From positions 1 to 64,000 of the forward strand of contig CAZCNH010000007.1 in assembly GCA_964500065.1 (NCBI GenBank): DNA of 64,000 bases, given 5' to 3'. Each line of letters starts with the position of its first letter. The first letter of the stretch is position 1. Source of the stretch: an uncultured Acidobacteriaceae bacterium. Its GTDB lineage: Bacteria > Acidobacteriota > Terriglobia > Acidiferrales > UBA7541. The translations under genes and the position numbers were made by a program. This document shows positions 35,642 through 53,899 of the stretch, one piece after another. The notes below the pieces were generated by a model that worked only from the letters and a program-made list of their open reading frames with translations, did no database searches and was not told the origin of the DNA.

Positions 35642-35656
35642 CTTCATTGCCCCAGA

Positions 35657-35979: not shown

Positions 35980-35994
35980 CTTCATTGCCCCAGA

Positions 35995-36325: not shown

Positions 36326-36341
36326 CTTCAACCCACTCCCC

Positions 36342-37275: not shown

Positions 37276-37313
37276 GGGCTGCGGCTGCGCACCGCCTCCG
37301 GTGGAACGGCCGA

Positions 37314-39296
37314 CTACGGTTCCGGGGGAACTGTGGAAGGGGAACTCCGCAGTTGCGCCGCAAGAGATTTTTCCCTGGCAGCATCGCCGATCCGGCCGAG
37401 TTGCTCATAGGCGAGCCCGAGAAATCTATGAGCCTCGGCGGAATCGGGGCGCAATGCAGATGCTTTTTCCAGATAGGGCAGGCCCTCGGCAACGTTGCCC
37501 TGTGCCGCAAGCAGCCGGCCGAGCACCAGGTTTGTTCCGTACTGCTGTGCATCCAGGGAATTCGCTACGCGTAGTTGTTCGATGGCCTTCTCAGGACGGT
37601 TCGAAGTGGCATACGCCGTACCCAGCATAAAGTGAGCGCCGGCCCACTGCGGATTCTTCTCAATCACAATTTCCAAATGCAGCGCCGCTTCCACCGAGTT
37701 CCCCGTAAAAAGCAGGGCCCGCGCGTACGCATATTGGGCGGGTCCGGAGGCTGGCATCAGGTCGGTGGCTTTGCGCAGGGGGCCAAGCGCGGCCCGGTAA
37801 TTCTTCTGCTTCAATTGAGCAAGCCCCAGCTGAACCTGAGCGACAAAAATCTGAGGGTCGCCGGACAGTATTCTGTTCAAGATGGGGATAGCTTCTGCCG
37901 GCCGCTCCTGTTCAACCAGCAGCGTCGCTTGATGCAGCTGGTTGGCGACTTGAATCTTATCCTTTGGATCGGCCAGATCCTTGTCCGGTTTGTCGGTCGC
38001 GGGACCGGCCACATAGCCAAGTGCAGCGAGTTTTTCCGCGAGACGCGGATCCGCAGGTGGTTGCTTTCCAGAAGCCGGCGCGCGGTTCTGGCTGACGTTC
38101 TTGCGAAAAGCGTTCAGCTGACGGGAAAGCCGTTGCGCGTCGGCCGCGCGGGATTTGGCCACGTCGCGCTCGGTCCCTGGATCCGCAGCGGTATCATACA
38201 ATTCGGCGCGCGGCGCTTCGATAAACAGGAAGCTCTCCGTGCGCAGAGCGGCCAGCGAACTCCACCCGAATGCGCGCCGCGTGTACCGCGTTTCAGAATA
38301 CGCCGGCCGGTCAATTGCCCCCCGCCCAAGCAGAGTGAGCAGGTTCTGTCCCTGCATTTCTTTGGGAACGGGGACCGACGATGCAGCCAAGATGGTTGGC
38401 GCGATGTCCGCAAGACAGACGCGCCCGGCATAGCTCTGCCCTGCCCAATGCCCTTCCTGAAACTTCATCACCAGCGGCACGTGGATTGTGGAATCGTAAA
38501 GGAAGACGCCGTGCGTGAACTCGCCGTGTTCGCCAAAGGCTTCGCCATGATCTGCCGCCACTGCGATGACGGAGTTTCCGAACAGATTTCGCCCTTGCAG
38601 ATCCTGGAATAGTTTTCCGAGTTCCGCGTCGGCGTACGCGATCTCCCCGTCATAGGGGGCCTTGCTGTGGCGGCTTCCGTATTCTCCGGGCGCCTCGTAG
38701 GGTTCATGCGCATCGAAAAGATGCACCCAAAGGAAAAAAGGACCCGCAGGTTTCTGGTTGAGCCATTCGCGGGCGCGCCGGACCACTTCTTCGGCGCGGC
38801 GCTCGAGGGTTTGATACCGGTCGTCCTGCCGCCCGCGCCGCAAGCGATAGCCGGCATCGTACACGTCGAACCCGCGGTTGAAGTTCGGGGCCATGCCGTT
38901 GACCGGGTCGAGGATCAACGCCCCCACAAATGCTGCGGTGCGGTATCCCTGCTTCCGCAGCGAATCGGCGAGGGAAGGAACGTCGTTGGGCAGGGGCTCG
39001 CTGAAGTCGTGCACGCCGTGGTACGGAGGAAATGTGCCCGTCAAGATCGTGGCGTGGGATACGGTGGTGATCGGCGCCTGCGCGTAGGCTTGCGAGAAAA
39101 CCACCCCCTGCCGCGCGAGCGCATCCAGATTTGGCGTAAGCCCCGACTTCGAACCGAGAAACCCCATACGGTCAGCTCGGGTGGTGTCCAGTGTAATCAG
39201 GATAATGTCCGGTTTTTCCGATGGCGCTGGCGAGGGCGTGGGCGAAGCGCACGCCGGGGCAAAGATAACCAAAAGCAGTAGAAGCTTGCGCACCAT
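37314..39296 (-). CDS. sulfatase-like (alkaline-phosphatase superfamily) hydrolase/transferase fused to C-terminal TPR repeats
   Basis: Signal peptide MVRKLLLLLVIFAPACAS; ILITLDTTRADRMGF metal-site motif with Thr/Ser-type nucleophile; C-terminal TPR repeats (AALGPLRKATDLMPASGPAQYAYARALL...). Confidence 0.7.
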   Translation of the reverse strand: MVRKLLLLLVIFAPACASPTPSPAPSEKPDIILITLDTTRADRMGFLGSKSGLTPNLDALARQGVVFSQAYAQAPITTVSHATILTGTFPPYHGVHDFSEPLPNDVPSLADSLRKQGYRTAAFVGALILDPVNGMAPNFNRGFDVYDAGYRLRRGRQDDRYQTLERRAEEVVRRAREWLNQKPAGPFFLWVHLFDAHEPYEAPGEYGSRHSKAPYDGEIAYADAELGKLFQDLQGRNLFGNSVIAVAADHGEAFGEHGEFTHGVFLYDSTIHVPLVMKFQEGHWAGQSYAGRVCLADIAPTILAASSVPVPKEMQGQNLLTLLGRGAIDRPAYSETRYTRRAFGWSSLAALRTESFLFIEAPRAELYDTAADPGTERDVAKSRAADAQRLSRQLNAFRKNVSQNRAPASGKQPPADPRLAEKLAALGYVAGPATDKPDKDLADPKDKIQVANQLHQATLLVEQERPAEAIPILNRILSGDPQIFVAQVQLGLAQLKQKNYRAALGPLRKATDLMPASGPAQYAYARALLFTGNSVEAALHLEIVIEKNPQWAGAHFMLGTAYATSNRPEKAIEQLRVANSLDAQQYGTNLVLGRLLAAQGNVAEGLPYLEKASALRPDSAEAHRFLGLAYEQLGRIGDAAREKSLAAQLRSSPSTVPPEP

Positions 39297-39455
39297 CTTC
39301 TTCCTATTCAGGCTAGCATGCGCGATGGACTCTCTCAACGAATTAAGGGAGGGCACAGGGAAGGTCTCAGTGTGGTGCGTTGGATCCTCAGAAATTGCGA
39401 AGGGGAGGGCCTTCCCCTCCCCTTCGCCGGTGATGTGAAAATGCAACCCGCTCCG

Positions 39456-42400
39456 CTAGAAGTCAATCCGCAGAGCAAGCTGGGTGACGCGCGCGCCGCT
39501 GCCGCCGGTGCCCGCGCCGCCAATGGTAAATGTGGACTTGCCGAAGTTTGTGGGGTCGTTCAGGTCGCCCACCGGGACTCCGAAGTTCGGGTGGTTGAAG
39601 ATGTTGAAGAAGTTGGCTTGGAAAGTCATCTTGATGGCTTCCGTGAGCTTAAACTTCTTGTGAACGCCGAAGTCAAAGTTCACAAAACCGGGTGCGCGCA
39701 AGACACCACGGCCCAGATCGGAATTGCACCACCACTGCGTGGCAGTGGCGGGGGTTCCGATAATCCGGCCGCCGTTGGGCAGGCCAGAAGGACAGTTGGT
39801 GGCAGAGCGCAGCCGCGTAAAAGAGGCCAAGGTGACGTAGCCATCCGCAGGGCTCACGCTATTGTTCACGATGTTATTGATGTTCCCGGAGCCGTTGAAG
39901 ATGGGCCGGTCGGTGAAGTGCCCATCCGCGTTGGCATCGGAACCGCTCGAACTATCGAACAGAATCATCGGGACGCCGGTTTGCAACGAAGTGATCCCGC
40001 TGAAGGACCAGCCACCCAGCCAGCGATTGTCCTTCATCCAGGGTAGGTCGTAAAAATAGCTCAGAACGACCCTGTGCCGGATATCGAAGTCGGCGCTGCC
40101 CCTGTCGAGCATCCAATTGAAGTTATCGATCGGCCGCAGGCAGGTTGCGCAAGCGCGTCCGTTGTTGAAGGCATCGCTGACGTAGTCAATCGCATGGCTC
40201 CAGGTGTAATTGGCGTTGAACTGGAGGCCGTTGCTGAAGTTCTTGCGAACTACGGCTTGGAAGGAATGGTAATTGGAACGGAAGGCCGTAGTACGGAAGT
40301 TGTCGTTCGTGATCGTGCCATTGGGACGAGCGGAACCACCACCGCGCGTGCGTCCATTGAATGTATTCAGGTTGAGCACGCCGGTCAGTTTGTTGCCCAG
40401 CGTGCCGACATAGCCCAGTTCCACCACGTAGTCCTTGGCAAACTGCCACTGGCCCGTCAAATGGAACTGTTGCGAATAGGCCGTGGCCAGGTTCTCGTCC
40501 ATGTGCCGCGGGGATGCGCCACCGGGCGAGAACAGGTTGCGGCTGGATTGCGCGAACGGCACGCTGTAGATACCCGTGCTTACCGGTTGGTAGAAAACAT
40601 ACGAGAAGGAGTGGAAGGGGGCATTGAAACGGATGTTCTCGAAAAGATTGTTCCACATCCGGTCAAAGTAAACGCCGTAACTGCCGCGCAGAACCCACTT
40701 CTGGTTGCCGAATACATCGTAGGCAAAACCAAAACGCGGGGCGAAGTTATTCATATCTTTCTGCCAGATATTTTCGTCCCGCTGTTCAAACCGTCCAGAG
40801 ACTTCCCGAGCGATCCAGGGGTTGTTCGCGGGGAAGAAAGGATTGGCGCTAGGCGCAGGGGCCGGAAGCAAGCTGCCTGAATTGCCAAAGTAGAAGTTGG
40901 AGTCCAGGCCCTTGCGGAAGTTGTGCGGGGGTCCAAAATATTCCCACCGCAAACCTACGTTCAGGCTCAACCGGCGGTGGATCTTCCAGTCGTCCTGGAA
41001 GTACCACGAGATTTCGTTGGCGCGGTAACCGCGGTAGTACTCCGGTTCCGGACAACCTCCGGTCGGTGTGGTGCACCGGCTGGGATCAATGGCGGCCCCA
41101 GCATAGTAGATCGCACCGTAGTAAGGCGCGCCATAGAGAAACAGGTCTGCGGCGTCGCTGAACAGGCCGTCGGTGAGCAGGTCTTCCACCGCATGGAACG
41201 CAAACGCCCCGTTCTTAAAAGCGGAAAACGAGGAACCGTTGCGGGTGCGGCGGTATTCACCCCCGACCTTGAAGGTGTGATTCCCTTTTACCACCGACGT
41301 GTGGTTCTGAAGTTGGAAGAGGTTTTCCGTGAAGAACTGCGGGAGGTTCGACCCATTCCCGAACGAAGAAGCCAGACTGTCAAACGCGGTGATGACTTGA
41401 GGGGTATTCTCAAATCCCGGCGTGTTCGGGAAGTTGGCCACGTGGCGCAGATAGCTGAACTTAGTGGTGTTCAATACCGTGGGCGTAAAGGTGCGCGTCC
41501 AGGTGATCCCGGTAAGCACCGAGCCGCCTGGTGAGCTGTAAGGCACGCCGAAGGTTCCGTATCCGCCATAGAGAGAGTCAAAGTTATCGGCATCTTCCCA
41601 CAGCAGGGTGTAGTTCAGTTGGTCCTTGGAAGACAGGTGATTGTCGCTCTTGATGCTCACGCGATGCTCGTTGAATTGCACGCTGCGCAGAGCGCTGGCT
41701 TGCGCATAAACGGGCACCGGGTAAACCACGCCCAGCCCGGTCCATGGGCCGCGACCGGCAGAACTCTGGCCGGTGGCGGACGCTGAGGCCAGCGGAAACG
41801 CAGTGGCTGCCGCCGACAAAAGGCCGTTAAAAATCGGCCCTGTGTTTCCCGATCCGGCAAAGGCACCGGGGCACGGAGCCGCGGCCGGTGTGGGGATGCC
41901 AAAGTTGGAAGTAACATTCGCCAGCAGCGTAGCGTTGTTGCAGATGCCGTTGGGACTGGTTTCGATAAACGTGCGGAACTGGCCGTTACGGACAAAATCC
42001 AGAAACGCTTGTGTCATTACGGTTCCGGTTGCCGGAGTGGACGCGCGCCGCAGATGCCCCTCATAGCTGCCGTAGATGAAAGCGCGATCCTTAATGATCG
42101 GGCCCCCAAGAGATCCGCCATACTGGTTTCGAACCAGCCTGTCCTGCAGGCCGGCCTGGTTGGAAAAGAAACTGTTGGCGGCAAGCGCCTGCACGCGGTT
42201 GTACTCAAACAATGACCCGTGCCAGTTGTTGGTCCCGCTGCGGAGCACCATGTCGTTAATGAAGCCCCCGCCCTTGCCGTATTCCGCCGCGTAGCCGTTG
42301 GTCACTACGCGATACTCTTGGATGGCTTCAGGCGAAATTGAAGTGATGCCACCGGCGGCGGTGCGCGCACCGCGTCCGCCTTGGCCCTGATCGTTATTGT

Positions 42401-42980
42401 CGAAACCTTCGACCAGGAAATTGCCGGTTCCGGGACGCATGCCGTTCACAGCCGCCCCTCGAGTCGTGCCGCCGAAATCATCGGGCACAACGCCGGACAA
42501 AAGATTGATGAACGTATTTTGGTTGCGAGTTTCCAGGGGAATGGACTCCCAAACCCGGCGATCCACAAGTTCGGAGAGCTGCGATTCTCTGGTTTGCACC
42601 AGTTCAGCGCCGGCTTCCACGGTGACCGTCGCGGCCGCGGCGCCCACCTCGAGGTGAACGTCCGTGGTGGTCACACGGGCCACGCTGACTACGATGTTGC
42701 CTACCTCGTAGGTCTTGAAACCGCTTACTTCGACCTTGAGTTTGTAGGTACCCACAACCGGCAAACCGACAAAGCGATAAACTCCCGCGTCGCCGGTCTC
42801 CGTATTGCGCACCACACCGGTAGCAGTGTTGGTGAGCGTAACCTTCGCTTGCGGAACTACCGCACCGGTTTGATCGTAAACGACACCGGTTAAGTCGCCG
42901 GCACCTCCTTGCGCCCATCCTCCGTTAGCTGCCAGAAGGAACAGCGCCAGGCAAAGCGCCATTGTCATCTTTCGAGCCAT
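39456..42980 (-). CDS. TonB-dependent outer-membrane receptor with N-terminal CarboxypepD_reg-like domain
   Basis: Signal peptide MARKMTMALCLALFLLAANGGWAQG; Ig-like N-domain GVVYDQTGAVVPQAKVTL; plug and large beta-barrel (1175 aa); C-terminal ...LRIDF aromatic terminus; AAGGAG RBS. Confidence 0.85.
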   Translation of the reverse strand: MARKMTMALCLALFLLAANGGWAQGGAGDLTGVVYDQTGAVVPQAKVTLTNTATGVVRNTETGDAGVYRFVGLPVVGTYKLKVEVSGFKTYEVGNIVVSVARVTTTDVHLEVGAAAATVTVEAGAELVQTRESQLSELVDRRVWESIPLETRNQNTFINLLSGVVPDDFGGTTRGAAVNGMRPGTGNFLVEGFDNNDQGQGGRGARTAAGGITSISPEAIQEYRVVTNGYAAEYGKGGGFINDMVLRSGTNNWHGSLFEYNRVQALAANSFFSNQAGLQDRLVRNQYGGSLGGPIIKDRAFIYGSYEGHLRRASTPATGTVMTQAFLDFVRNGQFRTFIETSPNGICNNATLLANVTSNFGIPTPAAAPCPGAFAGSGNTGPIFNGLLSAAATAFPLASASATGQSSAGRGPWTGLGVVYPVPVYAQASALRSVQFNEHRVSIKSDNHLSSKDQLNYTLLWEDADNFDSLYGGYGTFGVPYSSPGGSVLTGITWTRTFTPTVLNTTKFSYLRHVANFPNTPGFENTPQVITAFDSLASSFGNGSNLPQFFTENLFQLQNHTSVVKGNHTFKVGGEYRRTRNGSSFSAFKNGAFAFHAVEDLLTDGLFSDAADLFLYGAPYYGAIYYAGAAIDPSRCTTPTGGCPEPEYYRGYRANEISWYFQDDWKIHRRLSLNVGLRWEYFGPPHNFRKGLDSNFYFGNSGSLLPAPAPSANPFFPANNPWIAREVSGRFEQRDENIWQKDMNNFAPRFGFAYDVFGNQKWVLRGSYGVYFDRMWNNLFENIRFNAPFHSFSYVFYQPVSTGIYSVPFAQSSRNLFSPGGASPRHMDENLATAYSQQFHLTGQWQFAKDYVVELGYVGTLGNKLTGVLNLNTFNGRTRGGGSARPNGTITNDNFRTTAFRSNYHSFQAVVRKNFSNGLQFNANYTWSHAIDYVSDAFNNGRACATCLRPIDNFNWMLDRGSADFDIRHRVVLSYFYDLPWMKDNRWLGGWSFSGITSLQTGVPMILFDSSSGSDANADGHFTDRPIFNGSGNINNIVNNSVSPADGYVTLASFTRLRSATNCPSGLPNGGRIIGTPATATQWWCNSDLGRGVLRAPGFVNFDFGVHKKFKLTEAIKMTFQANFFNIFNHPNFGVPVGDLNDPTNFGKSTFTIGGAGTGGSGARVTQLALRIDF

Positions 42981-43485
42981 TCGGTCTCCTTCCCTTGCCA
43001 ATGAACCACTGTGACTCAGAGGCAAGAAAACATATTTGTGCTCGGAAACTCTCCTGCAAGCACTTCTCCGCCCCTCAATGATTTTTCCTTACTGTTGGCG
43101 CGTTGAAGATGAATCACTTACATCTTGCATGCAGGCCTTCGGAGGCGTATTGCAAATTGCAACAACACATTTTCCCGTACAAAACTATGAAAATCCGGAA
43201 TCTCCCGATTTTCTCCACATTTAGTATTGGACTATTGCATCTCGCGATAGCACGATGCGTACTAATCACGCCGTCCGGTTTTGCCGTGTTGTCCCGCGCT
43301 TGCCCATGTCACCGCTGAACCATCCATGAGACTATTCGCTCTATTCGATCCAACGTGCTTCTGCTCTTATTCAATTGCGGGAGTGCTCACGCGAGCCAAC
43401 AACGAAAGGCGTGAAACTTTGTTATATTTTCTTCTTACTTTCAGCGAGACACGGAAGGACAACCGGAGTGCCGCACCAATCACAC

Positions 43486-44727
43486 ATGATTCTTGTTGGA
43501 CTGGGAAGCGCGGGGGACGTGCATCCCAATATCGGCCTCGGACGCGAACTGCAGCGGCGCGGCCATCGCGTGACGCTTGTCGCGGCCTCCGTGTTTCGCG
43601 AACTGGCCGCGCAGGCCGGCCTGGAATTTTTCGCCCTGGGCAACGACGAGCAGCACTATGCTGCCATCCGCAATCCCGACCTGTGGCATCCGATGAAGGC
43701 TTTCCCGTTGGTGGCGCGTTTATTGATGCTGCCAACCATGCGACCGGTGTACGAGTTCATCGCGCAGAATTATGTGAAAGGAAAAACGGTGGTAGCAGCG
43801 CCCGGCACCGCGTTTGGCGCGCGCCTGGCCAGCGAAAAACTGGGCGTGCCCCTGGCCACCCTGCATTTGCAGCCCAGCCTGTTGCGCAGTTCGCTTGAAC
43901 CTGCGTGCTACGCCGTTCCCGACCTTCTGCGCATGCTTCCGTTGTGGTTACGCAGACCCTACTACCGGCTGATCGATTGGCTGGCCATTGATCGCCTGCT
44001 CGTTCCCGAAACCAATGCCTTTCGCAAGGAACTGGGATTGCCGCCAGTTCACCGCGTCTTTGACGGTTGGCTGCACTCACCGCAATTGGTCATTGGACTA
44101 TTCCCGGAGTGGTTCGCTCCGCGCCCCGCAGACTGGCCGGCGAATTTTCATCACACGGGGTTCCCTCTGTGGGATGAGGGTGAAGTACGGCCCGCCACGC
44201 GGGATCTGGAATCGTTCCTTGCAGCGGGGGAGCCTCCCTGGGTCTTCACTGCCGGCTCGGTAAACATGCATGCCCACAAGTTCTTTCAGGCGGCAGTAGA
44301 CGCATGCCGGGCCAGTGGCCAGCGAGGCATCCTGATTGCCAAGTTTGCGGACCAGATTCCTTCGCCGCTTCCTGCCGGCGTCCGTCACTTTGAATACGTG
44401 CCCTTTAGTCAGATCCTGCCTCGCGCCGCGGCGTTCACGCATCACGGGGGCATCGGAACCGTAGCGCAGGGCCTGGCCGCGGGCGTTCCGCAACTGGTGA
44501 TGCCCCTGGCTCACGATCAGTTCGATAATGCCATGCGCGTGCGCCGACTGGGCTGCGGCGATTTCCTCTTGCCGAAGCAATTTGCCGGGGAAACTGTGGC
44601 CGCCGCTCTTAGAACGCTGACCAAGTCGAAAAGCGTCACCGCGAACTGCCGCCAGCGTGCCGCGGCTCTTGTCCAGGCTCGTCCCCTCGAGGTTATTTGC
44701 CGAATGCTGGAAACCGCGGGCGCCTGA
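43486..44727 (+). CDS. GT1-family glycosyltransferase (MGT / UDP-glucuronosyl-glucosyltransferase-like, GT28 N-domain)
   Basis: N-terminal MILVGLGSAGDVHPNIGLGRELQRRGHRV; C-terminal donor-binding motif HHGGIGTVAQGLAAGVPQLVMPLAHDQFDNA. Confidence 0.8.
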   Translation: MILVGLGSAGDVHPNIGLGRELQRRGHRVTLVAASVFRELAAQAGLEFFALGNDEQHYAAIRNPDLWHPMKAFPLVARLLMLPTMRPVYEFIAQNYVKGKTVVAAPGTAFGARLASEKLGVPLATLHLQPSLLRSSLEPACYAVPDLLRMLPLWLRRPYYRLIDWLAIDRLLVPETNAFRKELGLPPVHRVFDGWLHSPQLVIGLFPEWFAPRPADWPANFHHTGFPLWDEGEVRPATRDLESFLAAGEPPWVFTAGSVNMHAHKFFQAAVDACRASGQRGILIAKFADQIPSPLPAGVRHFEYVPFSQILPRAAAFTHHGGIGTVAQGLAAGVPQLVMPLAHDQFDNAMRVRRLGCGDFLLPKQFAGETVAAALRTLTKSKSVTANCRQRAAALVQARPLEVICRMLETAGA

Positions 44728-44767
44728 CTATTCGGCTTCCCAAGGCTTGAATTCGGCAACGACCTTG

Positions 44768-45406
44768 TCAGTCGTGTAAAACCACGCTGAGAAGCGAATG
44801 GTGAACACTTAAACCGCCGTTGTATTCCAGGAAGCCCAGCCGGCGGAATTTGTTCATGAAGAAATTCACGCGCGAGCGAGTAGTTCCGACCATTTTGGCC
44901 AGTGTTTCCTGGCCTACATGTGGAATCACCTGCGCGGCCTTGTTGGCGTGGCCGAAGTTGGAAAGCAGCAGCAGAATTCGCGCCAGGCGCTTTTCACTGG
45001 AATTGAAGAGCTGGTCCACTAGGTCTTCTTCGATGCGGATATTACGGGAGAGAATATAAGCGATAAACCGGTCGGAAAATTTGCGGTCGTTGCGCAGCAG
45101 CCGCAGAGCGGCAGACTTGTCAATTTTCAGCAGCGAACAGTCCGTCAAACTAGTAGCCGTCGCATGGCGTGTGGCTTGACCGCTCAGGCTTCCCTCGCCA
45201 AAGAAGTCGCCCGAATTGAGCACCGCGATGACGGCTTCTTTCCCCTGGCGAGAAACCACGCTAAAACTGATCTTCCCACGGATGACTTGGAAGACGTGGT
45301 TAGCGCGATCGCCCTGGCAATAAATCGTCTTGCCCTTTGCATAGGACACGACTCTTTGTCCCCGTCTTTTTGCGGGCAAAGCAGGCGTCTTCAACTTCAA
45401 GCGCAT
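44768..45406 (-). CDS. Crp/Fnr family transcriptional regulator
   Basis: cNMP-binding beta-roll (GDFFGEGSL) and C-terminal HTH (TRSRVNFFMNKFRRLGFL); 212 aa from internal Met 45406. Confidence 0.8.
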   Translation of the reverse strand: MRLKLKTPALPAKRRGQRVVSYAKGKTIYCQGDRANHVFQVIRGKISFSVVSRQGKEAVIAVLNSGDFFGEGSLSGQATRHATATSLTDCSLLKIDKSAALRLLRNDRKFSDRFIAYILSRNIRIEEDLVDQLFNSSEKRLARILLLLSNFGHANKAAQVIPHVGQETLAKMVGTTRSRVNFFMNKFRRLGFLEYNGGLSVHHSLLSVVLHD

Positions 45407-45612
45407 AGAAAGCCTCGCACCTCCGACCCAGGCTCGCGTTATAAGAGCACGGCAAAATAGGCCCCGACTGTTCAAAATTGAACAGCACTTTGCCGTTGCA
45501 CACAACTAAAATTTGACCAGCCGATTTCCCGTGACGGGAGTCGCCGAACACGATACAGTCTGCTTGCCGCTTCCACTCCCCTCCTTGTGGAAAATCGCAC
45601 TTCGGCAAGAAG

Positions 45613-47199
45613 GTGATACCGATGCGCGTTTTCCTGGTAAATCCGAGCCATTTGTCGTTCGGCATAGGAGTCATCACGCCGCGCTGGCTCTACGTATTGG
45701 CCGCGGCTACTCCCCGGCTGCACGGCGATCCCGTCATCGTGGACGAAATCCTCGAGCAGATGGATCTCGCCCGAATCAACCGCGGAGACGTGGTCGGCAT
45801 CGGCATTCACAGCGGCAATGCCTTGCGCGGATACGAAATCGGCCGGGCAGCGCGCGACCTGGGCGCATATGTCGTCTTCGGCGGTATTCACGCCAGCTTG
45901 TACCCGCAGGAGGCGCACGAACTGGGTGGCGCGCACTCAACGGTTAATGGCGATGGCGACCTGGTGTGGGCACGTGTTCTAGAGGATTGCCTCGCAGGTT
46001 CCCCCCATCCCCAGTACGAAGGGGGACGCATTGCCGCGGAGCAGTTCCTCTCTGCCCGCTGGGACCTCATGCCGGACGACACCTACATGTGGGCGTCGGT
46101 CCAGACGGTGCGCGGTTGCCCAAAGCATTGCTCCTTTTGCTCGGTGTGGCGGACCGACGGGCAAGCGCCTCGGCAGCGCGCTTCCGATGCCGTGATCGGC
46201 GAAATTGTGGAATTACGCCGGCGTGGGTTTCGCTTTGTGGTTCTCGCCGATGACAATTTTTACCCGGTGACGCTGGCGGACCTGGAGCTCGCCGAAAAGA
46301 ACAAGGACACGCATCGGCTGGGCGAGCTGCGCGCCAAGCGGCAGGAACGGTTTGAAATGATGGGGCGCCTGGCGCAATTGCCGGACGACATGGTCTTCAT
46401 GACGCAAATCACCATGGAAGCGGCGGACGATTCGGAGTTTTTGACGGCCATGAAGGCCGCGCGGATCCGTGGTGCTTTGGTGGGGGTGGAATCGGTCACT
46501 CCCGCCGGGTTGAAGGATGTCTTCAAGGAGTTCAATTCATCCGGCGACGCCTTGGCGCAGAGGCTGCGCACCTTCCGCCAGCATGGCGTGTTCGTTCTGG
46601 GCTCGTTCATTTTTGGATTGCCCAGCGACAATTCGGAAACCTTTGCGGAAACATTGCGCCTTACGAAAAAAGCGCAGCTGACGCTGGCGCAGTTCGTGAT
46701 GCTGACCCCGTACCCCGGAACCGTGGACTTCCAGCGATGGGAAAAGTCCATGACCAACGACACCACTCGGGTGGCGGGCATTCCCCTCACGCGCTACTGG
46801 CTGATTCCGCAATCGCTGAAGACCAAGGTCTATACCACTCATCCCCGGATGTCTGCGGACGAAATTCGCAAGCGCACGCAAGGCGTCTGGGACCAGTTCT
46901 ATGACCTGCGCATGGTGTGGCAACGCTCGAACTTCCTGAAGTCCATGCGCTCGCGCATCGGTTTCACCCTGCTCTCGAAGCTCTACCGGCAAATGTTCGC
47001 TAACACCGGCATCGCTACTGACAGCGCGCGGGTCAGCCGTTCCGCAGCCTGGGCGCGGTGGCTGGCCAAGCCGTGCCGGAAGTTATTCCACGGGCCACTG
47101 TTGCCGCACCTGCAGGTGCCAACCGGACCCCTGCCGCTGAGGGCTCCAGCGCCTGAGGCCGCACCTGCGGCCCTCATCTCCATTTCCAGCACGCACTAG
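45613..47199 (+). CDS. B12-binding domain radical SAM protein (class B rSAM, with DUF4070-like C-terminus)
   Basis: N-terminal Rossmann-like B12-binding domain; CxxxCxxC motif RGCPKHCSFCSV. Alternative ATG start at 45622. Confidence 0.8.
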   Translation: MIPMRVFLVNPSHLSFGIGVITPRWLYVLAAATPRLHGDPVIVDEILEQMDLARINRGDVVGIGIHSGNALRGYEIGRAARDLGAYVVFGGIHASLYPQEAHELGGAHSTVNGDGDLVWARVLEDCLAGSPHPQYEGGRIAAEQFLSARWDLMPDDTYMWASVQTVRGCPKHCSFCSVWRTDGQAPRQRASDAVIGEIVELRRRGFRFVVLADDNFYPVTLADLELAEKNKDTHRLGELRAKRQERFEMMGRLAQLPDDMVFMTQITMEAADDSEFLTAMKAARIRGALVGVESVTPAGLKDVFKEFNSSGDALAQRLRTFRQHGVFVLGSFIFGLPSDNSETFAETLRLTKKAQLTLAQFVMLTPYPGTVDFQRWEKSMTNDTTRVAGIPLTRYWLIPQSLKTKVYTTHPRMSADEIRKRTQGVWDQFYDLRMVWQRSNFLKSMRSRIGFTLLSKLYRQMFANTGIATDSARVSRSAAWARWLAKPCRKLFHGPLLPHLQVPTGPLPLRAPAPEAAPAALISISSTH

Positions 47200-47324
47200 G
47201 TCCGGGCCTTTCTCGCACACTTGTTTAGAAACTTCGTCAGAAAACGGGTTACTGCTATATAATTCACGCCTCGGGGCTCGCCGATCCCAGCCGACTGAGA
47301 AAACCACAACGAAAAGGAGCCCGC

Positions 47325-49238
47325 TTGACCATGCAGGGGCCAACGGAACGTCACATAGCTCCAACAAACGGCTCGGGAAATTCCAAAGCAAATGGCCATG
47401 GCGCCGGCGCGAACGGCAGCCGGCCAGCCTATGCCCCACCGCCCGGCGGCGGCAAGTTGATCGTGCTCACCGCTCCGCTCACCGAGTCCATTGATCATGC
47501 CGGGTACTTCATCCAGATGGCCCTGGCTTCCCTGCCGGAGTGGATGGAATTTGTTCTCAATAAGAAGTACCCGAAATGGCGCGATGTGGAGCGCGAAGCT
47601 GACGGAGCTGCGCGCTACATGCCCGCGGGTGTTCGAGTTCTGGAAAAATCCTTGCTGCGTGAATTCCCGGAAGGCGATGTTGTCGCCTGCTTTCCCGATG
47701 ACCTGGACAAGTTTGTTGGCCCGCGCACCCGGGTCGTGGCGGTTTCCACACACAATCCGCTGGGCGTGACCTTTGCCGCGGGCGTTTACACCTCGATTTT
47801 CGGCTCGTCGAAAATGCCGCTGAACTCCATCTACTCGCGCAAAATGTTTGCTCAGATCAAGCAGCACCCCAACCGCGAGAATTTCCAGGTGATGGTGGGC
47901 GGCTCCGGCGGGTGGCAAATTACGCAAACCAACACCTTCGAAGAACTGGGAATTGATTGCGTGGTGGAAGGGCGCAGTGAATCGGCCGATACGATGAAGC
48001 TGTTCCATGATGCTATCGCGGGCAAATCGTTGCCGCGCGAAGTCACCGTGGGCCATCCCACATCGCGCGAAGACATTCTGTTCCCTGACCGCCGCACCAC
48101 CTTCGGCGTCGTCGAGATGACGACGGGCTGCGGCCGCCGCTGCCAATTCTGCGTCCCGGACCTGAATCCGCAGATTGACATGCCCAAGGAACGCATCATG
48201 GAGGCGGTTCGCGCCAACGTGGCCCACGGCAACAAGCAAATATCACTGGCCACCGAAGACATGTTCATCTGGGGCCAGGTCCACAAGGAAACTCCGTTTT
48301 ATTTCCCCAACCGCGAAGCCCTGGTGGATCTCTACAAGTCCATCGTGGATACCCCTGGGGTCGAGCAGCACGTGCTGAGCCACTGCACCATCGCCCCGTT
48401 CGTTGTGGATCCCACGCTGATTCGGCAAATCAGCGAGGCCGTGCTGGACAAGAGTCCCATCCACCTGCCCATGCTGAGCACCCATCCGAAAAAGAAAGCG
48501 CTGTGCCCCCTGATTGGACTGGAAACCGGGTCGGTGCGCATGGCCAAGCAAATCATGCCCAGCAAAGGCGTGCCGTTTTCCATTGAAGATTGGCCCAGCG
48601 TGGTCATCAATGGGTTGAAGGTGGCCAACGAAAATAATTGGTTCCCGATGATGACGCTGATGATCGGCAACCCGGGCGAAACCGATGACGACGTCCGGGA
48701 AACCCTGGATCTGGTCTACGAAATCGAGCGCCGCGGCCTGTTCGCGTTTCTTGTGCCTTCCATCTTCACGCCGCTGCACGATACGCGCATGGAAAAGCAG
48801 GAAGGCATCCGGCAGACGCGACAACTTCGCCCCTTGCAATGGCAGCTCATCATGAAGTGTTGGAAGATGAACCTGCGGCCGGGCCAATACAGTTGGTGGG
48901 GACCGACGGCATGGCGCGTAGGTTCTCTCGCCATGTGGCTGAAACGCCTGCGTAAACTCAATGGCCCGAACTTCACCTGGCCGTTGCTGATGTTCGCCGG
49001 GCTGGCGCCGGAAAAGCTCCTGGACATGATGGGCAAGATCTACCTGGGCAAGCCCATCAAAGTGAAAACCCGCAAAGAATTGCTGGCCACGCTCAAGCCC
49101 CACCACCTGCGGCACATGCGGCCGGATAACGGCGATTTACCCGAGGGCTTCGAGCAGATGATCGCCAGCGCTCCGCCCGCGGGTCGCGTGGATGTTACGT
49201 TGGCCAGCCTTGGCGCTTCCGCCGGAGCCTCCGACTAA
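47325..49238 (+). CDS. B12-binding domain radical SAM protein, second paralogue-like gene, with N/G/H-rich N-terminal tail
   Basis: CxxxCxxC motif TGCGRRCQFCVP; B12-binding-like N-domain; AAGGAG RBS before TTG 47325 / ATG 47331. Confidence 0.8.
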   Translation: MTMQGPTERHIAPTNGSGNSKANGHGAGANGSRPAYAPPPGGGKLIVLTAPLTESIDHAGYFIQMALASLPEWMEFVLNKKYPKWRDVEREADGAARYMPAGVRVLEKSLLREFPEGDVVACFPDDLDKFVGPRTRVVAVSTHNPLGVTFAAGVYTSIFGSSKMPLNSIYSRKMFAQIKQHPNRENFQVMVGGSGGWQITQTNTFEELGIDCVVEGRSESADTMKLFHDAIAGKSLPREVTVGHPTSREDILFPDRRTTFGVVEMTTGCGRRCQFCVPDLNPQIDMPKERIMEAVRANVAHGNKQISLATEDMFIWGQVHKETPFYFPNREALVDLYKSIVDTPGVEQHVLSHCTIAPFVVDPTLIRQISEAVLDKSPIHLPMLSTHPKKKALCPLIGLETGSVRMAKQIMPSKGVPFSIEDWPSVVINGLKVANENNWFPMMTLMIGNPGETDDDVRETLDLVYEIERRGLFAFLVPSIFTPLHDTRMEKQEGIRQTRQLRPLQWQLIMKCWKMNLRPGQYSWWGPTAWRVGSLAMWLKRLRKLNGPNFTWPLLMFAGLAPEKLLDMMGKIYLGKPIKVKTRKELLATLKPHHLRHMRPDNGDLPEGFEQMIASAPPAGRVDVTLASLGASAGASD

Positions 49239-49317
49239 AGAGTCCCTCCGAGCGCTCTCACAAAACCTCTCCACCATTTGTTAGGATGTACCTGCTTTTT
49301 CTCGGGGCGCCACTTCC

Positions 49318-50484
49318 ATGTCCATTCGCAAAGTTATCTTCTGGACTCACTTGACCTTTGGCGTAACGGCGGGAGTCCTTATTCTGCTGATGAGCGCAAC
49401 CGGCGCGCTGCTGGCCTTTGCTCCGCAAATCCAGCGCTTGGCCGACCGCCATGCACGCATTGTTGCCCCGCCGGCCCCGGATGCCGCGCGGCTTGGTCCG
49501 GACGAGTTGTTTGCCAAAGTACGTGAAGCCCGTCCAGGTGCGAGTCTCGACGGAATCTCCTGGGAAGAAGACCGCACGGTGGCCGCAACGGTCACGCTCG
49601 GCCGGGAAAGTATCTACGTTAATCCTTACACGGCAGAGATTGTGGGCGCCCCTGTACAAGGCGTCCGCAATTTCTTCCGTACCGTAACCGACTGGCACCG
49701 TTCGCTCGGCATGCAGGGAGAAAAACGCAACACTGCGCGAATGTTCACCGGCGCTGCGAACCTTGCATTCTTCGGTCTAGCGCTCAGCGGAATCACCATC
49801 TGGTGGCCGAGGACATGGACGCGGGCACATCTTCGGCCCGCGGCTATATTCCAATCCGGCCTTCGCGGAAAATCGCGTGACTGGAACTGGCACAACGTTG
49901 TGGGCTTCTGGATGTGGCCCGTTCTGTTAATCCTGACTTCAACAGGTGTGGTGCTTTCCTATTCCTGGGCCAACAACCTGCTGTATACGTTGACCGGGAG
50001 TCCACTGCCTATGCAAGGCCCAGCCCCGGCCCAATCCCCTCGGGAAGCGGCGTCAGTTCCCGCTGTCGAGCCCAAAAGCCTGAACGAGCTTTGGAAGCGC
50101 GCGGATGCGCAAGCCCCCGGCTGGCGCATGATGCAGATGCGCATCCCGGCGAAGGCCGGCGACCCCGTAGTGTTCATTCTGCGGGAGAGCGGCACTTGGT
50201 CGGAATTTCAGCGGTCGCAATTGCTGCTCGATCGCGCCACGGGCGAAGTGGTTCGCTGGGAACCCTACGCCGGCCTGAGCGCTGGAAGAAGGTTGCGCAC
50301 TTGGTTTCGCTTCTCGCACACCGGCGAAATGGGCGGCATCGTCGGGCAGTTGCTCGCAGGGTTGGCCTGTGTGGGTGGAATGCTTTTGGTGTATACAGGA
50401 ATCTCGCTTGCGCTGCGGCGCCTTATTGCCTGGGTCGGCCGCCGCAAAGGTCAGGCTGTTCCCGCTGCCGTTCCGATCGAATGA
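49318..50484 (+). CDS. PepSY-associated TM helix domain membrane protein (PiuB-like)
   Basis: N-terminus MSIRKVIFWTHLTFGVTAGVLILLMSATGALLAF and overall topology typical of PepSY_TM proteins. Confidence 0.75.
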   Translation: MSIRKVIFWTHLTFGVTAGVLILLMSATGALLAFAPQIQRLADRHARIVAPPAPDAARLGPDELFAKVREARPGASLDGISWEEDRTVAATVTLGRESIYVNPYTAEIVGAPVQGVRNFFRTVTDWHRSLGMQGEKRNTARMFTGAANLAFFGLALSGITIWWPRTWTRAHLRPAAIFQSGLRGKSRDWNWHNVVGFWMWPVLLILTSTGVVLSYSWANNLLYTLTGSPLPMQGPAPAQSPREAASVPAVEPKSLNELWKRADAQAPGWRMMQMRIPAKAGDPVVFILRESGTWSEFQRSQLLLDRATGEVVRWEPYAGLSAGRRLRTWFRFSHTGEMGGIVGQLLAGLACVGGMLLVYTGISLALRRLIAWVGRRKGQAVPAAVPIE

Positions 50485-50491
50485 GGTTGCC

Positions 50492-51685
50492 ATGAACCGA
50501 AGGCTGACTACTATCCTTGTTATCTCTGCGTTGCTGGCGATTTCTCCCTCCGCGGGCGCCCAATCGTGGCCGACGAAATCCTGGCCTGCGGCAAAGCTCA
50601 ACGACGTGGGCGTCGATCCGGCGCCGCTCGACCGGCTCGACGCGGAGATTCGCGCCGGCAAGCATGGCTACGTGGACAGCTTCACAGTGCTTCGCTGCGG
50701 CAGGCTGGTTTACGACAAGAATTACGCGCACGACTACGACCAGATTTACGGCGAGCGCGCAAAAACTCCCGGCCCGCTCAATCACGACCCCGCCGGACAG
50801 TACAACTACTTCAATCCGGATTGGCACCCGTTCTACAAACGCGGCGAACTGCACTCCATGCAGTCCATCACCAAGACGGTAACCAGCGTGATTATCGGCG
50901 TGGCCATTGCCCGCGGCGACTTTCCTCCTGTCACTACACCGATGCTGAAGTTCTTTGACCCGGACAAAGTAAAAAACGTTGACGAACGAAAACGCCGCGT
51001 CACCATCGAGCACTTGCTCACCATGACCGCCGGGATGGAGTGGAATGAGAATCTTCCCTACACCGACCCCAGGAACTCTGCCGACTTGATGGAAGCCAGC
51101 CACGATTGGGTGCAATACGCCATAGATCAACCTATGGTGCGGGAGCCGGGCGCCCTGTTCAATTACAGCAGTGGTTCCTCGCAAATCCTCTCCCACATTT
51201 TCAAGCAAGCTACCGGCCGCGACATTAGCGACTATGCGGCGGAATACTTGTTCAAGCCGATGGGAATTATCCACTATTGGAAGCGCACGCCGACCGGCCT
51301 GTCGGACACCGAAGGCGGCCTGTACCTTCGCGGTCACGACCTCGCAAAGATCGGCTATCTCTACCTGACCAATGGAATCTGGGATGGTAAGCAACTGGTG
51401 CGCCCGGAGTGGGTGAAGGAATCCGTCGCCCCGCGCACCACGGTGGATGGGGGCCCGGTGCAATACGGCTACAAATGGTGGCTCCCGCCCTATGGCCCCA
51501 ATAAAACCCTGGCCTGGACGGGCAGCGGTTTCGGCGGTCAACGTCTGGTGGTACTTCCGAAAGAGGGCATGGTGATTGTCACCACGGGCTGGACGACCCT
51601 TGCCGCTCCCATTGGAGCGCGCGTTCTGTTAGACGCGGGCCACGCCGCTGCGCAGCCATTTTCCTGCGCCGCTAAAGCGAAATAG
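50492..51685 (+). CDS. beta-lactamase-family serine hydrolase (secreted)
   Basis: Signal peptide MNRRLTTILVISALLAISPSAGAQS; active-site SxxK SITK; YxN-like motif; GAGG RBS before ATG 50492. Confidence 0.8.
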   Translation: MNRRLTTILVISALLAISPSAGAQSWPTKSWPAAKLNDVGVDPAPLDRLDAEIRAGKHGYVDSFTVLRCGRLVYDKNYAHDYDQIYGERAKTPGPLNHDPAGQYNYFNPDWHPFYKRGELHSMQSITKTVTSVIIGVAIARGDFPPVTTPMLKFFDPDKVKNVDERKRRVTIEHLLTMTAGMEWNENLPYTDPRNSADLMEASHDWVQYAIDQPMVREPGALFNYSSGSSQILSHIFKQATGRDISDYAAEYLFKPMGIIHYWKRTPTGLSDTEGGLYLRGHDLAKIGYLYLTNGIWDGKQLVRPEWVKESVAPRTTVDGGPVQYGYKWWLPPYGPNKTLAWTGSGFGGQRLVVLPKEGMVIVTTGWTTLAAPIGARVLLDAGHAAAQPFSCAAKAK

Positions 51686-51697
51686 CGCGGGCAGTTC

Positions 51698-52021
51698 TCA
51701 GTTGCGCTTTATGGCCGTGAAAATAAGGAAGAGTATGGCCGCCGACAGAAGCACCATCAGAACTACAGGTGCGTCGCCGCCGGTGCTGCGGCTAACAATA
51801 GCCGCGGCCAGTATCCCACCCAGGAGTACTGCGAGAAGCAAGAAAAAGGCCGGCGGTGTCTTCGCGGCGGTCTGCTCCTGCGCAACCTTCAATGCCTGGC
51901 GCAATTCCATACCGTCCACCGCGCCATGTTCTCGCCGATAAGCCTCGATCGTTTCGGCAATCTTGCGCCCAAGCTGCTGGGCCCGGGGCGACACCGAGTG
52001 CGACACATGAATGGGGATCAC
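51698..52021 (-). CDS. small hypothetical membrane protein
   Basis: Two predicted TM helices in the C-terminal half; no other support. Confidence 0.3.
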   Translation of the reverse strand: MIPIHVSHSVSPRAQQLGRKIAETIEAYRREHGAVDGMELRQALKVAQEQTAAKTPPAFFLLLAVLLGGILAAAIVSRSTGGDAPVVLMVLLSAAILFLIFTAIKRN

Positions 52022-52124
52022 AGGGCTTCTCCTCCGGGCGGGCGGCTGGATCTCATTCTATACTACGGGCGTGCGCGGCTCTTTGTGTCAGGGCAAGCCG
52101 CGTGGCTACGGGAGATACCAGCCA

Positions 52125-53096
52125 ATGCAGCAGCGTATTTTGGGAAGAACGAATCTGGAAATCAGCGCAATTGGGCATGGCTTGTGGGGCATGAGCAACT
52201 GGACCGGCTCGGACGACGCCGAATCCCGCGCCGCCCTGCAACACGCCGCGCATCTCGGTTGCAATTTTTTCGACACCGCCTGGGCTTACGGCAAAGGCAA
52301 GAGCGACCGCTTCCTGGGCGAACTGCTGCGTGCAAATCCCGGCAAACGCCTGCACGCGGCTTCGAAAGTTCCCCCGAAAAACGGAAAATGGCCGGGCAGC
52401 CCTGCGGACTCCATCGAAGCAACCTTCCCCATGGACCACGTTCTGGAATACGCCGACCGCATCTGCGAGGCGCTGGATACCAAGACCATTGACCTGCTGC
52501 AATACCACGTGTGGAGCGATGCCTGGGCGGAAACGGACACCTTTCGCAAAACCGTTGAGCGGCTCAAGAGCGAAAGACGCATCCGCTATTTCGGCCTGAG
52601 CCTGAACCGCTGGGAACCGGAAAACGGGACTCGCGCACTTCGCACCGGCCTGGTGGATGTGGTGCAAGTGATCTACAACATCTTTGACCAGGCTCCCGAA
52701 GATGAACTGCTGCCCCTGTGTAAGGAGTTGAACATCGGCGTGATCGCCCGCGTGCCGCTGGATGAAGGCAGCCTGGCAGGGACCTTTACTCGCGATACCA
52801 GGTTTCCCCGTGAAGACTGGCGCGCCAATTATTTCAATCCGCAGAACCTGGTGGAAACGGTTGAGCGCGTCGAAAAACTGCGCCGCCTGCTGCCGCAGGG
52901 GATGAACATGGCGGAAATGGCCCTGCGCTTTATCCTGTCGAACCCCGTGGTGAGCACCACGATTGTCGGCATGCGCCGCGCTTCTCACGTGGAAGCAAAC
53001 CTGCGCGCAGGCGATGGCGTGCCGCTTGCCGCTTCCCTGCTGAGCGAACTGCGCGCCCACCGCTGGGACCGCCGGCCAGCAACGTGGTCAGCCTGA
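52125..53096 (+). CDS. aldo/keto reductase
   Basis: MQQRILGRTNLEISAIGHGLWGM...FFDTAWAYG AKR N-terminal signature; GGGAG RBS before ATG 52125. Confidence 0.85.
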   Translation: MQQRILGRTNLEISAIGHGLWGMSNWTGSDDAESRAALQHAAHLGCNFFDTAWAYGKGKSDRFLGELLRANPGKRLHAASKVPPKNGKWPGSPADSIEATFPMDHVLEYADRICEALDTKTIDLLQYHVWSDAWAETDTFRKTVERLKSERRIRYFGLSLNRWEPENGTRALRTGLVDVVQVIYNIFDQAPEDELLPLCKELNIGVIARVPLDEGSLAGTFTRDTRFPREDWRANYFNPQNLVETVERVEKLRRLLPQGMNMAEMALRFILSNPVVSTTIVGMRRASHVEANLRAGDGVPLAASLLSELRAHRWDRRPATWSA

Positions 53097-53113
53097 TAGT
53101 GCGCCCTTTCTGG

Positions 53114-53839: not shown

Positions 53840-53899
53840 CGCTGAGCCTCCCAATGGAGACAAGCTTACACCAGGAAGCGTCTGCGTCTCCGGTGCCGG

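Follow-up and report, generated by a model that had tools for sequence, protein, structure and literature searches.

Two radical SAM genes in a probable mosaic of transcription units of an uncultured Acidobacteriaceae bacterium

The locus described here occupies positions 43,486 to 51,685 of a window of 64,000 nucleotides, by which we mean the whole stretch of DNA that was analysed (positions 1 to 64,000, forward strand, of contig CAZCNH010000007.1, assembly GCA_964500065.1, from an uncultured Acidobacteriaceae bacterium). Two adjacent genes in it encode radical S-adenosylmethionine (SAM) enzymes, here named rSAM1 and rSAM2, and around them lie genes for a glycosyltransferase, a Crp-family regulator, a PepSY_TM protein and a secreted serine hydrolase. 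The original prediction, made from the letters of the DNA, regarded the ensemble as one modification or biosynthetic locus. We consider it more probable, at roughly 0.68, that lineage-specific rearrangement has joined independent transcription units into a mosaic along this 8-kb stretch, and that it is not one system. Membership of a conserved biosynthetic cluster or operon fails, the order of the genes being lost outside the closest relatives.

Genes of the locus and their order in relatives

Every gene of the original prediction was confirmed, with its coordinates, by Pfam and NCBIfam scans. The first, on the forward strand (43486..44727), encodes an MGT/UDPGT-like glycosyltransferase of family GT1, with the Pfam domains EryCIII-like_C, Glyco_transf_28 and UDPGT above their cut-offs; the predicted "MGT-type GT1" is right as to GT1 but not as to MGT membership, as the NCBIfam MGT model (TIGR01426) stays at 89 bits, under its cut-off of 260. 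The gene for the Crp-family transcription regulator follows on the reverse strand (44768..45406; Pfam cNMP_binding, 9e-23, and HTH_Crp_2). It is divergent from rSAM1, and the spacer between these two genes contains a perfect 16-bp palindrome, TGTTCAAAATTGAACA (45469..45484, TGTTC-N6-GAACA), which is unique in the window and a candidate operator common to the two divergent promoters. rSAM1 (45613..47199, forward strand) is a radical SAM protein of class-B architecture with the motif CPKHCSFC (Radical_SAM, 5.6e-14); because its best database match has 525 amino acids, translation probably begins at the ATG at 45622. A gap of 125 bp, inside which a promoter-like element was found (TCGTCA-18-TATAAT, 47234..47263, forward strand, 10 of 12 matches in a consensus scan), separates rSAM1 from rSAM2. 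The latter (47325..49238, forward strand) is a stand-alone radical SAM protein with the motif CGRRCQFC. Its best database match has 635 amino acids (602–641 among orthologues), for which reason it probably starts at the ATG at 47331.

Downstream on the same strand lies the gene for the PepSY_TM protein (49318..50484; PF03929, 4e-51, 174.9 bits against a gathering score of 28.8), followed after 7 bp by that for the hydrolase (50492..51685), and these two are probably co-transcribed. The hydrolase has the beta-lactamase fold (PF00144, 1.5e-23, 84 bits against 27), and when read from the ATG at 50492, its probable true start, it carries both a signal peptide, MNRRLTTILVISALLAISPSAGAQS, and the SxxK motif SITK; its best NCBIfam match reaches 119 bits of a cut-off of 800. 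Over positions 42900–53200, no Rfam family was matched, cobalamin riboswitches included.

On the other side, the 460-bp divergent intergenic region that precedes the glycosyltransferase gene (43026..43485) is low in GC, as had been noted (0.47 against about 0.60 in its flanks). Beyond it, on the reverse strand, a TonB-dependent outer-membrane receptor is encoded (39456..43025; Pfam OMP_b-brl_4, 7e-160, CarboxypepD_reg and Plug), and 10 bp further on its own strand a sulfatase-TPR gene (37314..39446), the 710-amino-acid product of which has a sulfatase domain and carboxy-terminal TPR repeats. Receptor and sulfatase-TPR protein probably form a separate unit for uptake and desulfation, independent of the radical SAM genes. 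The whole block is absent from a close relative described below. The possible action of the locus on an imported TonB substrate is abandoned; with the receptor pairing with the sulfatase-TPR gene, a functional link between it and the radical SAM enzymes was rejected.

The two enzymes share the predicted CxxxCxxC core (PF04055, 53.1 bits for rSAM1 and 37.9 for rSAM2, cut-off 29.5). They had also been credited with an amino-terminal cobalamin-binding domain each. Both are class-B-like in architecture, which bears out part of this claim, but the B12-binding domain PF02310 stays below its cut-off of 32.1 bits in both (17.1 bits in rSAM1, 11.7 in rSAM2), and either may, or may not, use cobalamin. 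The fold alone is no proof of cobalamin binding, because AprD4 has the same domain and is not known to use cobalamin. Neither enzyme reached the cut-off of any curated NCBIfam subfamily, so that neither falls into a characterised one. For rSAM1 the scores were 65.8 bits of 577.6 for HpnJ, 38.2 of 650 for HpnR and 55.2 of 481 for BchE; for rSAM2 none of these three models was listed. PhpK and the other models were likewise far below threshold. As had been stated, nothing here matches the hopanoid hpn gene set, and with HpnJ and HpnR so far from their cut-offs and no hpn-like genes seen, an hpn-like hopanoid locus was rejected. The description of a tandem of B12-type enzymes is correct for the adjacency, but not for a related pair. 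When the two families are compared with hhalign, the probability is 14% and about 60 residues align, around the cysteine motif only. Against the 174 relatives of rSAM2, rSAM1 scores at most 13.5 bits, where the median for rSAM2 is 206 bits. By these comparisons the two are not paralogues.

For gene order, rSAM2 loci were collected by searching one genome for each species with an rSAM2 alignment, which gave at least 519 loci, of which the best 80 were analysed (70 with at least 2 kb upstream, 65 with at least 2 kb downstream). All of these 80 carry Acidobacteriota labels (Terriglobia, Blastocatellia, Pyrinomonadaceae, Chloracidobacterium), except for one short contig labelled Nitrospiraceae. 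Homologues of rSAM1, the GT1 protein, the PepSY_TM protein, the hydrolase and the aldo-keto reductase encoded downstream in the window were sought within 10 kb of rSAM2 and found in none of the 80 loci, even at E < 1e-5. At that threshold, the stray weak matches were a TonB receptor of 25% identity (L019) and a partial Crp protein of 30% (L069), and when the neighbouring open reading frames were clustered, each family occurred in 20 of the 80 loci at most. A scan of metagenome contigs with an rSAM1 alignment gave 80 rSAM1 loci (64–72% identity), again with no rSAM2, GT1, PepSY_TM or hydrolase gene near rSAM1 in any of them. Under the refuting condition given with the original prediction, a gene order that relatives do not keep, the view of the ensemble as a single modification or biosynthetic locus thus fails, the order being lost beyond the closest relatives.

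Three relatives are much closer. The 5.2-kb contig L165 encodes the GT1 protein (69% identity), rSAM1 (86%), rSAM2 (88%) and the PepSY_TM protein (68%); rSAM2 is followed by a PepSY_TM gene only there and in the window. In L163, the GT1 gene (69%) and rSAM1 are followed by unrelated genes, and rSAM2 is missing; of the loci analysed, only these two contigs and the window have GT1 beside rSAM1. The Crp gene between GT1 and rSAM1 is absent from both L163 and L165. The third relative, L164, flanks its rSAM2 (85%) as the window does, with an Aminotran_5 protein (84%), a homoserine-dehydrogenase-like protein (76%), a PfkB protein (68%) and a BtpA-family protein (83%) on one side and an aldo-keto reductase (76%) on the other. 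It lacks about 13 kb of the window (33797–47199), as well as the PepSY_TM and hydrolase genes. The missing block encodes a pyridoxal phosphate (PLP) enzyme, a 238-amino-acid open reading frame, the sulfatase-TPR protein, the TonB receptor, the GT1 protein, the Crp regulator and rSAM1. No mobile-element genes were seen in this block of the window; in L164 its place is taken by CSD, TPR/GT41 and a small open reading frame (L164:6689–9436). The order is thus kept in one of these equally close relatives (L165) and broken in the other two.

Because L164 is syntenic around rSAM2 and lacks the rSAM1 block, the adjacency of the two genes is an insertion or deletion difference between close relatives. 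rSAM2 holds the older chromosomal position; the neighbours of this ancestral position are the BtpA-family gene upstream (32907–33767) and the aldo-keto reductase gene downstream (52011–53096). The taxonomic spread of the families also differs. Homologues of rSAM1 with about 70% identity also carry the labels Gemmatimonadota, Binatia and Entotheonella, and the close matches of rSAM2 are nearly all from Acidobacteriota, from which it follows that the two families are not obligate partners.

Elsewhere in the window, sizeable open reading frames with no Pfam family are located at 53114–53863 (reverse strand, its amino-terminus resembling a signal peptide), 25586–27724 (forward), 58680–60575 (forward) and 36342–37058 (reverse), and an isocitrate lyase gene at 60569–61957 (reverse). 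A relaxed palindrome scan also showed the 16-mer AGTTCTACGCTGACCA twice, at 13641 and 13975, 334 bp apart, which may mark an internal repeat.

rSAM2 and its archaeal relatives

Over the 80 genome loci, rSAM2 proteins are 72–88% identical (75–88% for the top database matches), and the gene is present across acidobacterial classes, at about 75–80% identity, subdivision-4 lineages included. Two separate contigs of the Acidoferrales metagenome-assembled genome (MAG) CAWCIG01 (L008 and L014) each have an rSAM2 orthologue, with 78% identity; the gene was duplicated, or else the second copy is an artefact of binning or assembly. A divergent paralogue or orthologue (P0250, 40% identity, 555 amino acids) occurs in MAGs of the Bryobacteraceae, the GTDB family of Candidatus Solibacter usitatus. 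More remote relatives were sought exhaustively among 1.84 billion representative proteins, and 253 proteins were found at E <= 1e-30. Outside the tight acidobacterial clade, intermediates of 40–46% identity come first, followed by full-length proteins of about 480–560 amino acids. The identity to the full-length archaeal ones is 23–36% when aligned with MAFFT (28–36% by the search tool). Named sources of remote relatives are Thermoprotei, Desulfurococcaceae/Staphylothermus, Archaeoglobaceae, Bathyarchaeia, Odinarchaeota and Lokiarchaeota. When the search was started from the Archaeoglobaceae member, only archaeal names came back, for example Ferroglobus placidus, Archaeoglobales, Bathyarchaeia, Hadarchaeum, Thermoplasmatota, Nitrososphaerales and members of the Asgard group; PF02310 is present in many of these proteins. 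No named A. profundus protein was among them, and the search did not separate Grs from Gmm-type proteins.

The homology between rSAM2 and the archaeal proteins extends over the whole length, with shared motifs in the amino-terminal domain, the core and the region beyond; in the alignment that shows them, the archaeal members have 23–32% identity to rSAM2. rSAM2 aligns with archaeal B12-type radical SAM proteins (about 490–550 amino acids), probably of the Grs/Gmm/Cgm/Ted clan, through the Rossmann-type domain, the core and the region that follows, and the only invariant cysteines across the clan alignment are those of the CxxxCxxC motif. It differs from the clan in being about 100 amino acids longer, with a low-complexity amino-terminus and a tryptophan-rich carboxy-terminal extension, and in that PF02310, carried by many archaeal homologues, is sub-threshold in rSAM2. 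The extension (residues 503–557, window positions 48831–48995) contains 7 of the 13 tryptophans of the protein, all 7 of them invariant in Acidobacteria; it is specific to Acidobacteria and missing from the archaeal relatives, and suggests binding to a membrane interface. The remote relatives belong to no Pfam or NCBIfam subfamily, and sequence and profile searches of the PDB with rSAM2 gave no meaningful match. The AlphaFold model of rSAM2 is poor (pLDDT 58), so that the Foldseek matches to MgmA, AprD4 and TsrM (TM 0.3–0.5) are hints at the level of architecture.

The taxonomic profile of rSAM2 matches the one published for homologues of grs, the gene for the ring synthases (Grs) of GDGTs (glycerol dialkyl glycerol tetraethers), which are archaeal tetraether lipids. 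These homologues were reported from Thermoproteia (especially Desulfurococcales), Bathyarchaeia, Korarchaeia, Archaeoglobi and Lokiarchaeia and also from four Acidobacteriae MAGs, with 27–30% identity to GrsA/B, read as an archaeal-to-bacterial transfer (bioRxiv 10.1101/2022.08.15.504015). The criterion used there was a BLASTP match to both GrsA and GrsB with at least 70% coverage, at least 20% identity and E <= 1e-40. GrsA and GrsB of Sulfolobus acidocaldarius (Saci_1585, Q4J8I0, and Saci_0240, Q4JC22) are themselves only 31% identical, a divergence like that between rSAM2 and the archaeal proteins. In S. usitatus, a single GrsA/B homologue was reported, Acid_5783 (597 amino acids, 25–29% identity, E about 1e-40; PMC10087280 Table S6; bioRxiv 10.1101/2022.04.07.487437), and this protein (Q01UE0) was proposed by two groups as the ring synthase for GDGTs of the branched kind, or brGDGTs (PMC10087280, Halamka et al. 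2022; bioRxiv 10.1101/2022.04.07.487437, Chen et al. 2022). Compared by these reported data, Acid_5783 is similar in length to the rSAM2 orthologues. It is the sole GrsA/B match of its proteome, and likewise rSAM2, not rSAM1, is the one of our two enzymes that scores on the archaeal clan; the value of about 1e-40, reported for one proteome, fits the 165–265 bits of rSAM2 against its archaeal relatives. From these likenesses in taxonomic profile and score range, rSAM2 is likely to be a member of the acidobacterial "Grs homologue" family.

The cyclases, methylases (Gmm, Cgm) and desaturase (Ted) of the archaeal clan are mutually homologous (bioRxiv 10.1101/2025.10.20.683597). The characterised archaeal B12-type radical SAM enzymes placed with Grs (Grs, Gmm, Cgm and Ted) all act on lipid tails. 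A membrane-lipid role for rSAM2 is thereby plausible, and the possible action on a membrane lipid that had been predicted survives for rSAM2, its distant archaeal relatives probably being of Grs type, but not for the locus as one system. Since rSAM2 is stand-alone, Grs-like and kept across acidobacterial classes, it is a reasonable candidate for a reaction on a lipid tail; which one is speculation. Its natural substrate would differ from that of Grs in deriving from fatty acids and not from isoprenoids. The formation of brGDGT rings is a minor trait, for which the spread and extreme conservation of rSAM2 seem more than needed.

That same conservation, with a mean column identity of 85% in a 25-sequence alignment and 72–80% identity between classes, would also suit a housekeeping role outside lipids, in the modification of a protein, an RNA or a cofactor, with the likeness to the archaeal enzymes reflecting no more than a fold inherited in common. 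The neighbours of this stand-alone gene are housekeeping genes, there is a weak similarity to the MiaB/RimO methylthiotransferases (42 bits), and activities diverge easily within the archaeal clan (bioRxiv 10.1101/2025.10.20.683597). rSAM2, however, has neither a cysteine triad for an auxiliary cluster nor a TRAM-like domain, the characterised enzymes with which its relatives would group all act on lipid tails, and the tryptophan-rich extension would point to the membrane. We regard a role of this kind as possible but doubtful.

rSAM1 and the Crp-family regulator

rSAM1 is about 67–85% identical to its top 120 database matches and about 65–72% across Acidobacteriota. Its AlphaFold (AF2) model (pLDDT 77, pTM 0.80) matches AprD4, TsrM, CysS and MgmA in Foldseek at TM 0.53–0.67, AprD4 being the best, and the rSAM1 profile matches MgmA (4.7e-12) and CysS (7e-07) in the PDB, all its matches there being generic class-B ones. 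Like TsrM, CysS, TokK, MgmA and AprD4, rSAM1, judged from its model, would have an amino-terminal Rossmann domain followed by the CxxxCxxC barrel; it differs from the class-B methyltransferases and AprD4 in sequence, with an identity of only 15–19%, and in the sub-threshold PF02310 score. Judged from the model, rSAM1 represents an uncharacterised family with the class-B (cobalamin-type) radical SAM fold.

On a 4-Mb contig (L001:7535–11608), an rSAM1 homologue of 68% identity occurs alone; a gene for a fatty-acid desaturase lies divergent to it, and PSCyt2/PSD1 and DUF1501 genes come next. The 5' leader of rSAM1 is kept among close relatives (window 45500–45612, L163:590–700 and L165:905–975). 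It contains an inverted repeat, CTTCCAC...GTGGAA(A/G), with CCTCC in the loop, just before a Shine-Dalgarno-like AAGGTGA. This could be a hairpin for translational control; the leader matched no Rfam family, and its folding did not surpass that of shuffled sequence (z = -0.3).

The regulator belongs to the CRP/FNR superfamily (PF00027, 80.5 bits, and PF13545, 34.4 bits, both above cut-off) and shares the cNMP-binding domain and the Crp-type helix-turn-helix with E. coli CRP, FNR, FixK and CooA, but its scores with all the named subfamily models fall far short of the cut-offs. A homologue of it is the sole recurrent neighbour of rSAM1, adjoining it in about 9 of the 80 loci with 51–59% identity (L087, L088, L096, L103, L127, L131, L132, L152 and L161). 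The palindrome upstream of rSAM1 was found by eye, as the inverted-repeat tool had overlooked the 16-bp repeat, and was confirmed by a pattern search. The box TG.TCA....TGA.CA, with at most one mismatch, was then scored in loci with sufficient flank (77 for rSAM1, 78 rSAM2 controls). In 15 of the 77 loci, a few of which are near-duplicates, it precedes rSAM1 by 144–286 bp, against one of the 78 controls (binomial P = 1.4e-14), and it is also found upstream of rSAM1 in L163. Loci with the box have an adjoining Crp gene in 6 of 15 cases, those without it in 3 of 62 (Fisher P = 0.0013). The linkage of the regulator with rSAM1 is upheld by its recurrence and by the shared palindromic site, and the Crp protein is probably the regulator of rSAM1.

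The candidate box resembles the CRP site in being a 16-bp palindrome with CRP-like 5-N6-5 spacing, and differs from CRP and FNR sites in its half-site, TG(T/G)TC instead of TGTGA or TTGAT. The FNR site is TTGAT-N4-ATCAA. The original prediction spoke of Fnr-type control, which would suit oxygen-labile chemistry, and one might imagine rSAM1 as an oxygen-independent replacement enzyme, induced in hypoxia by an FNR-type sensor: the clusters of radical SAM enzymes are oxygen-labile, a Crp/Fnr-family regulator adjoins rSAM1, a conserved box lies upstream, and the genes for Hsp20 and alcohol dehydrogenase in box-bearing loci call to mind regulons of dormancy or hypoxia. The regulator, however, has no amino-terminal cysteine cluster of the kind that defines [4Fe-4S] FNR proteins, its translation having two scattered cysteines in the mature protein; the NCBIfam Fnr model reaches 20.7 bits of a cut-off of 228; and TGTTC-N6-GAACA is unlike the FNR site. 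On these three counts FNR-type oxygen sensing by the regulator was rejected. From its sequence it is a Crp-like protein and not an Fe-S oxygen sensor of the FNR kind, and the hypoxia scenario as a whole is unlikely.

Additional intergenic copies of the box, TG(T/G)TCA-N4-TGA(A/C)CA, are present at L131:3265–10915, L096:6169–9125, L128:7909–19963 and L087:9046. The loci in question encode a sortase/LPXTG/VWA set, Hsp20, a zinc alcohol dehydrogenase, a LolA-like lipoprotein, a GT4 and GH130 pair, response regulators and a Crp paralogue. The paralogue (L131:7679–8395) has a cysteine-rich amino-terminus, CVESCLTCHLRYENFFC, and, unlike the regulator of the window, might bind an Fe-S cluster. The extra boxes suggest a Crp-family regulon in Acidobacteria; no description of an acidobacterial Crp-box regulon was met in the literature cited here, in which no search was aimed at the regulon.

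Reading the locus

In the mosaic we favour, the parts would work as follows. The GT1 gene would be expressed from its own low-GC promoter region. The Crp regulator, with no Fe-S cluster and divergent from rSAM1, would bind TGTTCAAAATTGAACA and control both its own gene and rSAM1, the product of which would most likely methylate or otherwise functionalise an unactivated carbon; if the box also governs the genes for Hsp20, alcohol dehydrogenase, the sortase/LPXTG set, the LolA-like protein and Crp, rSAM1 would be a member of a stress-type regulon. rSAM2 would be a stand-alone gene with its own promoter-like element, in its ancestral position between the BtpA-family and aldo-keto reductase genes. 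Like the archaeal ring synthases, its product would rely on a 5'-deoxyadenosyl radical for the abstraction of hydrogen from a saturated lipid tail and would then make a carbon-carbon bond, with membrane-spanning lipids derived from iso-C15 (iso-diabolic acid or brGDGTs) as likely substrates. The PepSY_TM protein and the secreted hydrolase would be an accessory pair, the former found beyond the window only in the nearest relative.

Several points weigh against this reading. The box occurs in only about 20% of the rSAM1 loci, and the binding of it by the regulator, with control of itself and rSAM1, is a step that we infer. As to the promoter-like element before rSAM2, the -10 region, CTATA(A/C)T, and flanking bases are kept in an alignment of the window with L165 and L164, the last of which lacks rSAM1, and this speaks for the mosaic, but the match at 47234..47263 is no commoner than in shuffled sequence, which makes the element, a consensus match, a weak candidate. 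The link of rSAM2 to GrsA/B and Acid_5783 is drawn from the taxonomic profile and the matching score ranges, and the archaeal relatives of rSAM2 could be of Gmm, Cgm or Ted type instead, Ferroglobus placidus being reported to have Gmm. Lastly, genes for archaeal lipid-modifying B12-type radical SAM enzymes sometimes cluster (PMC11214058; bioRxiv 10.1101/2025.10.20.683597), so that a methylase-like gene beside a Grs-like one could have a meaning, and the order GT1-rSAM1-rSAM2-PepSY is repeated, among the relatives examined, in L165 and there only.

Because L165 keeps this order, a young functional operon remains conceivable, in which the GT1 protein, rSAM1 as an enzyme of the methylase type and rSAM2 as a Grs-type enzyme that forms carbon-carbon bonds would act in turn on one membrane-spanning lipid, with the PepSY_TM protein and the hydrolase as accessory envelope proteins and Crp exerting condition-dependent control. 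In its favour, L165 shares the order at 68–88% protein identity, L163 repeats GT1-rSAM1, the five genes from GT1 to the hydrolase are on one strand with short gaps, the nearest structural relatives of rSAM1 include cobalamin-dependent methyltransferases, and those of rSAM2 would be lipid-tail enzymes, the genes for which can cluster in archaea. We consider such an operon decidedly improbable: its order is absent from the 160 more distant loci, and only one of the three equally close relatives keeps it. In the window itself, GT1 and rSAM1 are parted by a Crp gene on the other strand; both radical SAM genes have a conserved upstream element of their own; and rSAM1 has homologues labelled as groups other than Acidobacteriota, where rSAM2 is near-exclusively acidobacterial.

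The tetraether synthase Tes (GDGT-MAS) and Mss, the bacterial synthase of membrane-spanning lipids, as in Thermotoga or Thermoanaerobacter, are radical SAM enzymes that make carbon-carbon bonds between saturated lipid tails, the chemistry that iso-diabolic acid needs. Among Acidobacteria, this lipid has been measured in subdivisions 1, 3, 4 and 6 but not in 8, 10 and 23. The structure of GDGT-MAS is in the PDB. Tes/GDGT-MAS chains appeared neither in the PDB searches with rSAM1, rSAM2 and the rSAM2 profile (E <= 1) or with the rSAM1 profile (E <= 0.1), nor among the top Foldseek matches of either model. No mss homologues were found in Acidobacteria, and tes in only 3 of 14 producers of iso-diabolic acid, from which an alternative pathway was suggested (PMC13159169). 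With no Tes-type match in these searches, membership of either enzyme in Tes was rejected; with mss homologues reported absent, membership in Mss is improbable. Two papers of 2026 name no acidobacterial enzyme for membrane-spanning lipids (PMC13274423; PMC13459092). It is a long shot, but rSAM2 might be the missing enzyme, derived from Grs, acquired from archaea and coupling iso-C15 tails into iso-diabolic acid, with rSAM1 then as a methylase for C5/C6 of the tails. If so, rSAM2 would perform tail coupling and not merely ring addition, on the compound that is the backbone of the brGDGT palaeoclimate biomarkers. This would explain its presence across acidobacterial classes, its core-gene-like conservation and how Acidobacteria do without mss and mostly without tes; rSAM1, methylase-like and under Crp control, could be one unknown C5/C6 tail methylase.

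The proposal of a cluster with two radical SAM enzymes is unsupported, and with it a false lead is removed; the rSAM2 family and the Crp box remain as leads, not as findings. brGDGTs underpin widely used proxies for palaeotemperature and pH. With rSAM2 as a single, stand-alone candidate gene, the question of which enzymes make and decorate the membrane-spanning lipids of Acidobacteria becomes testable.

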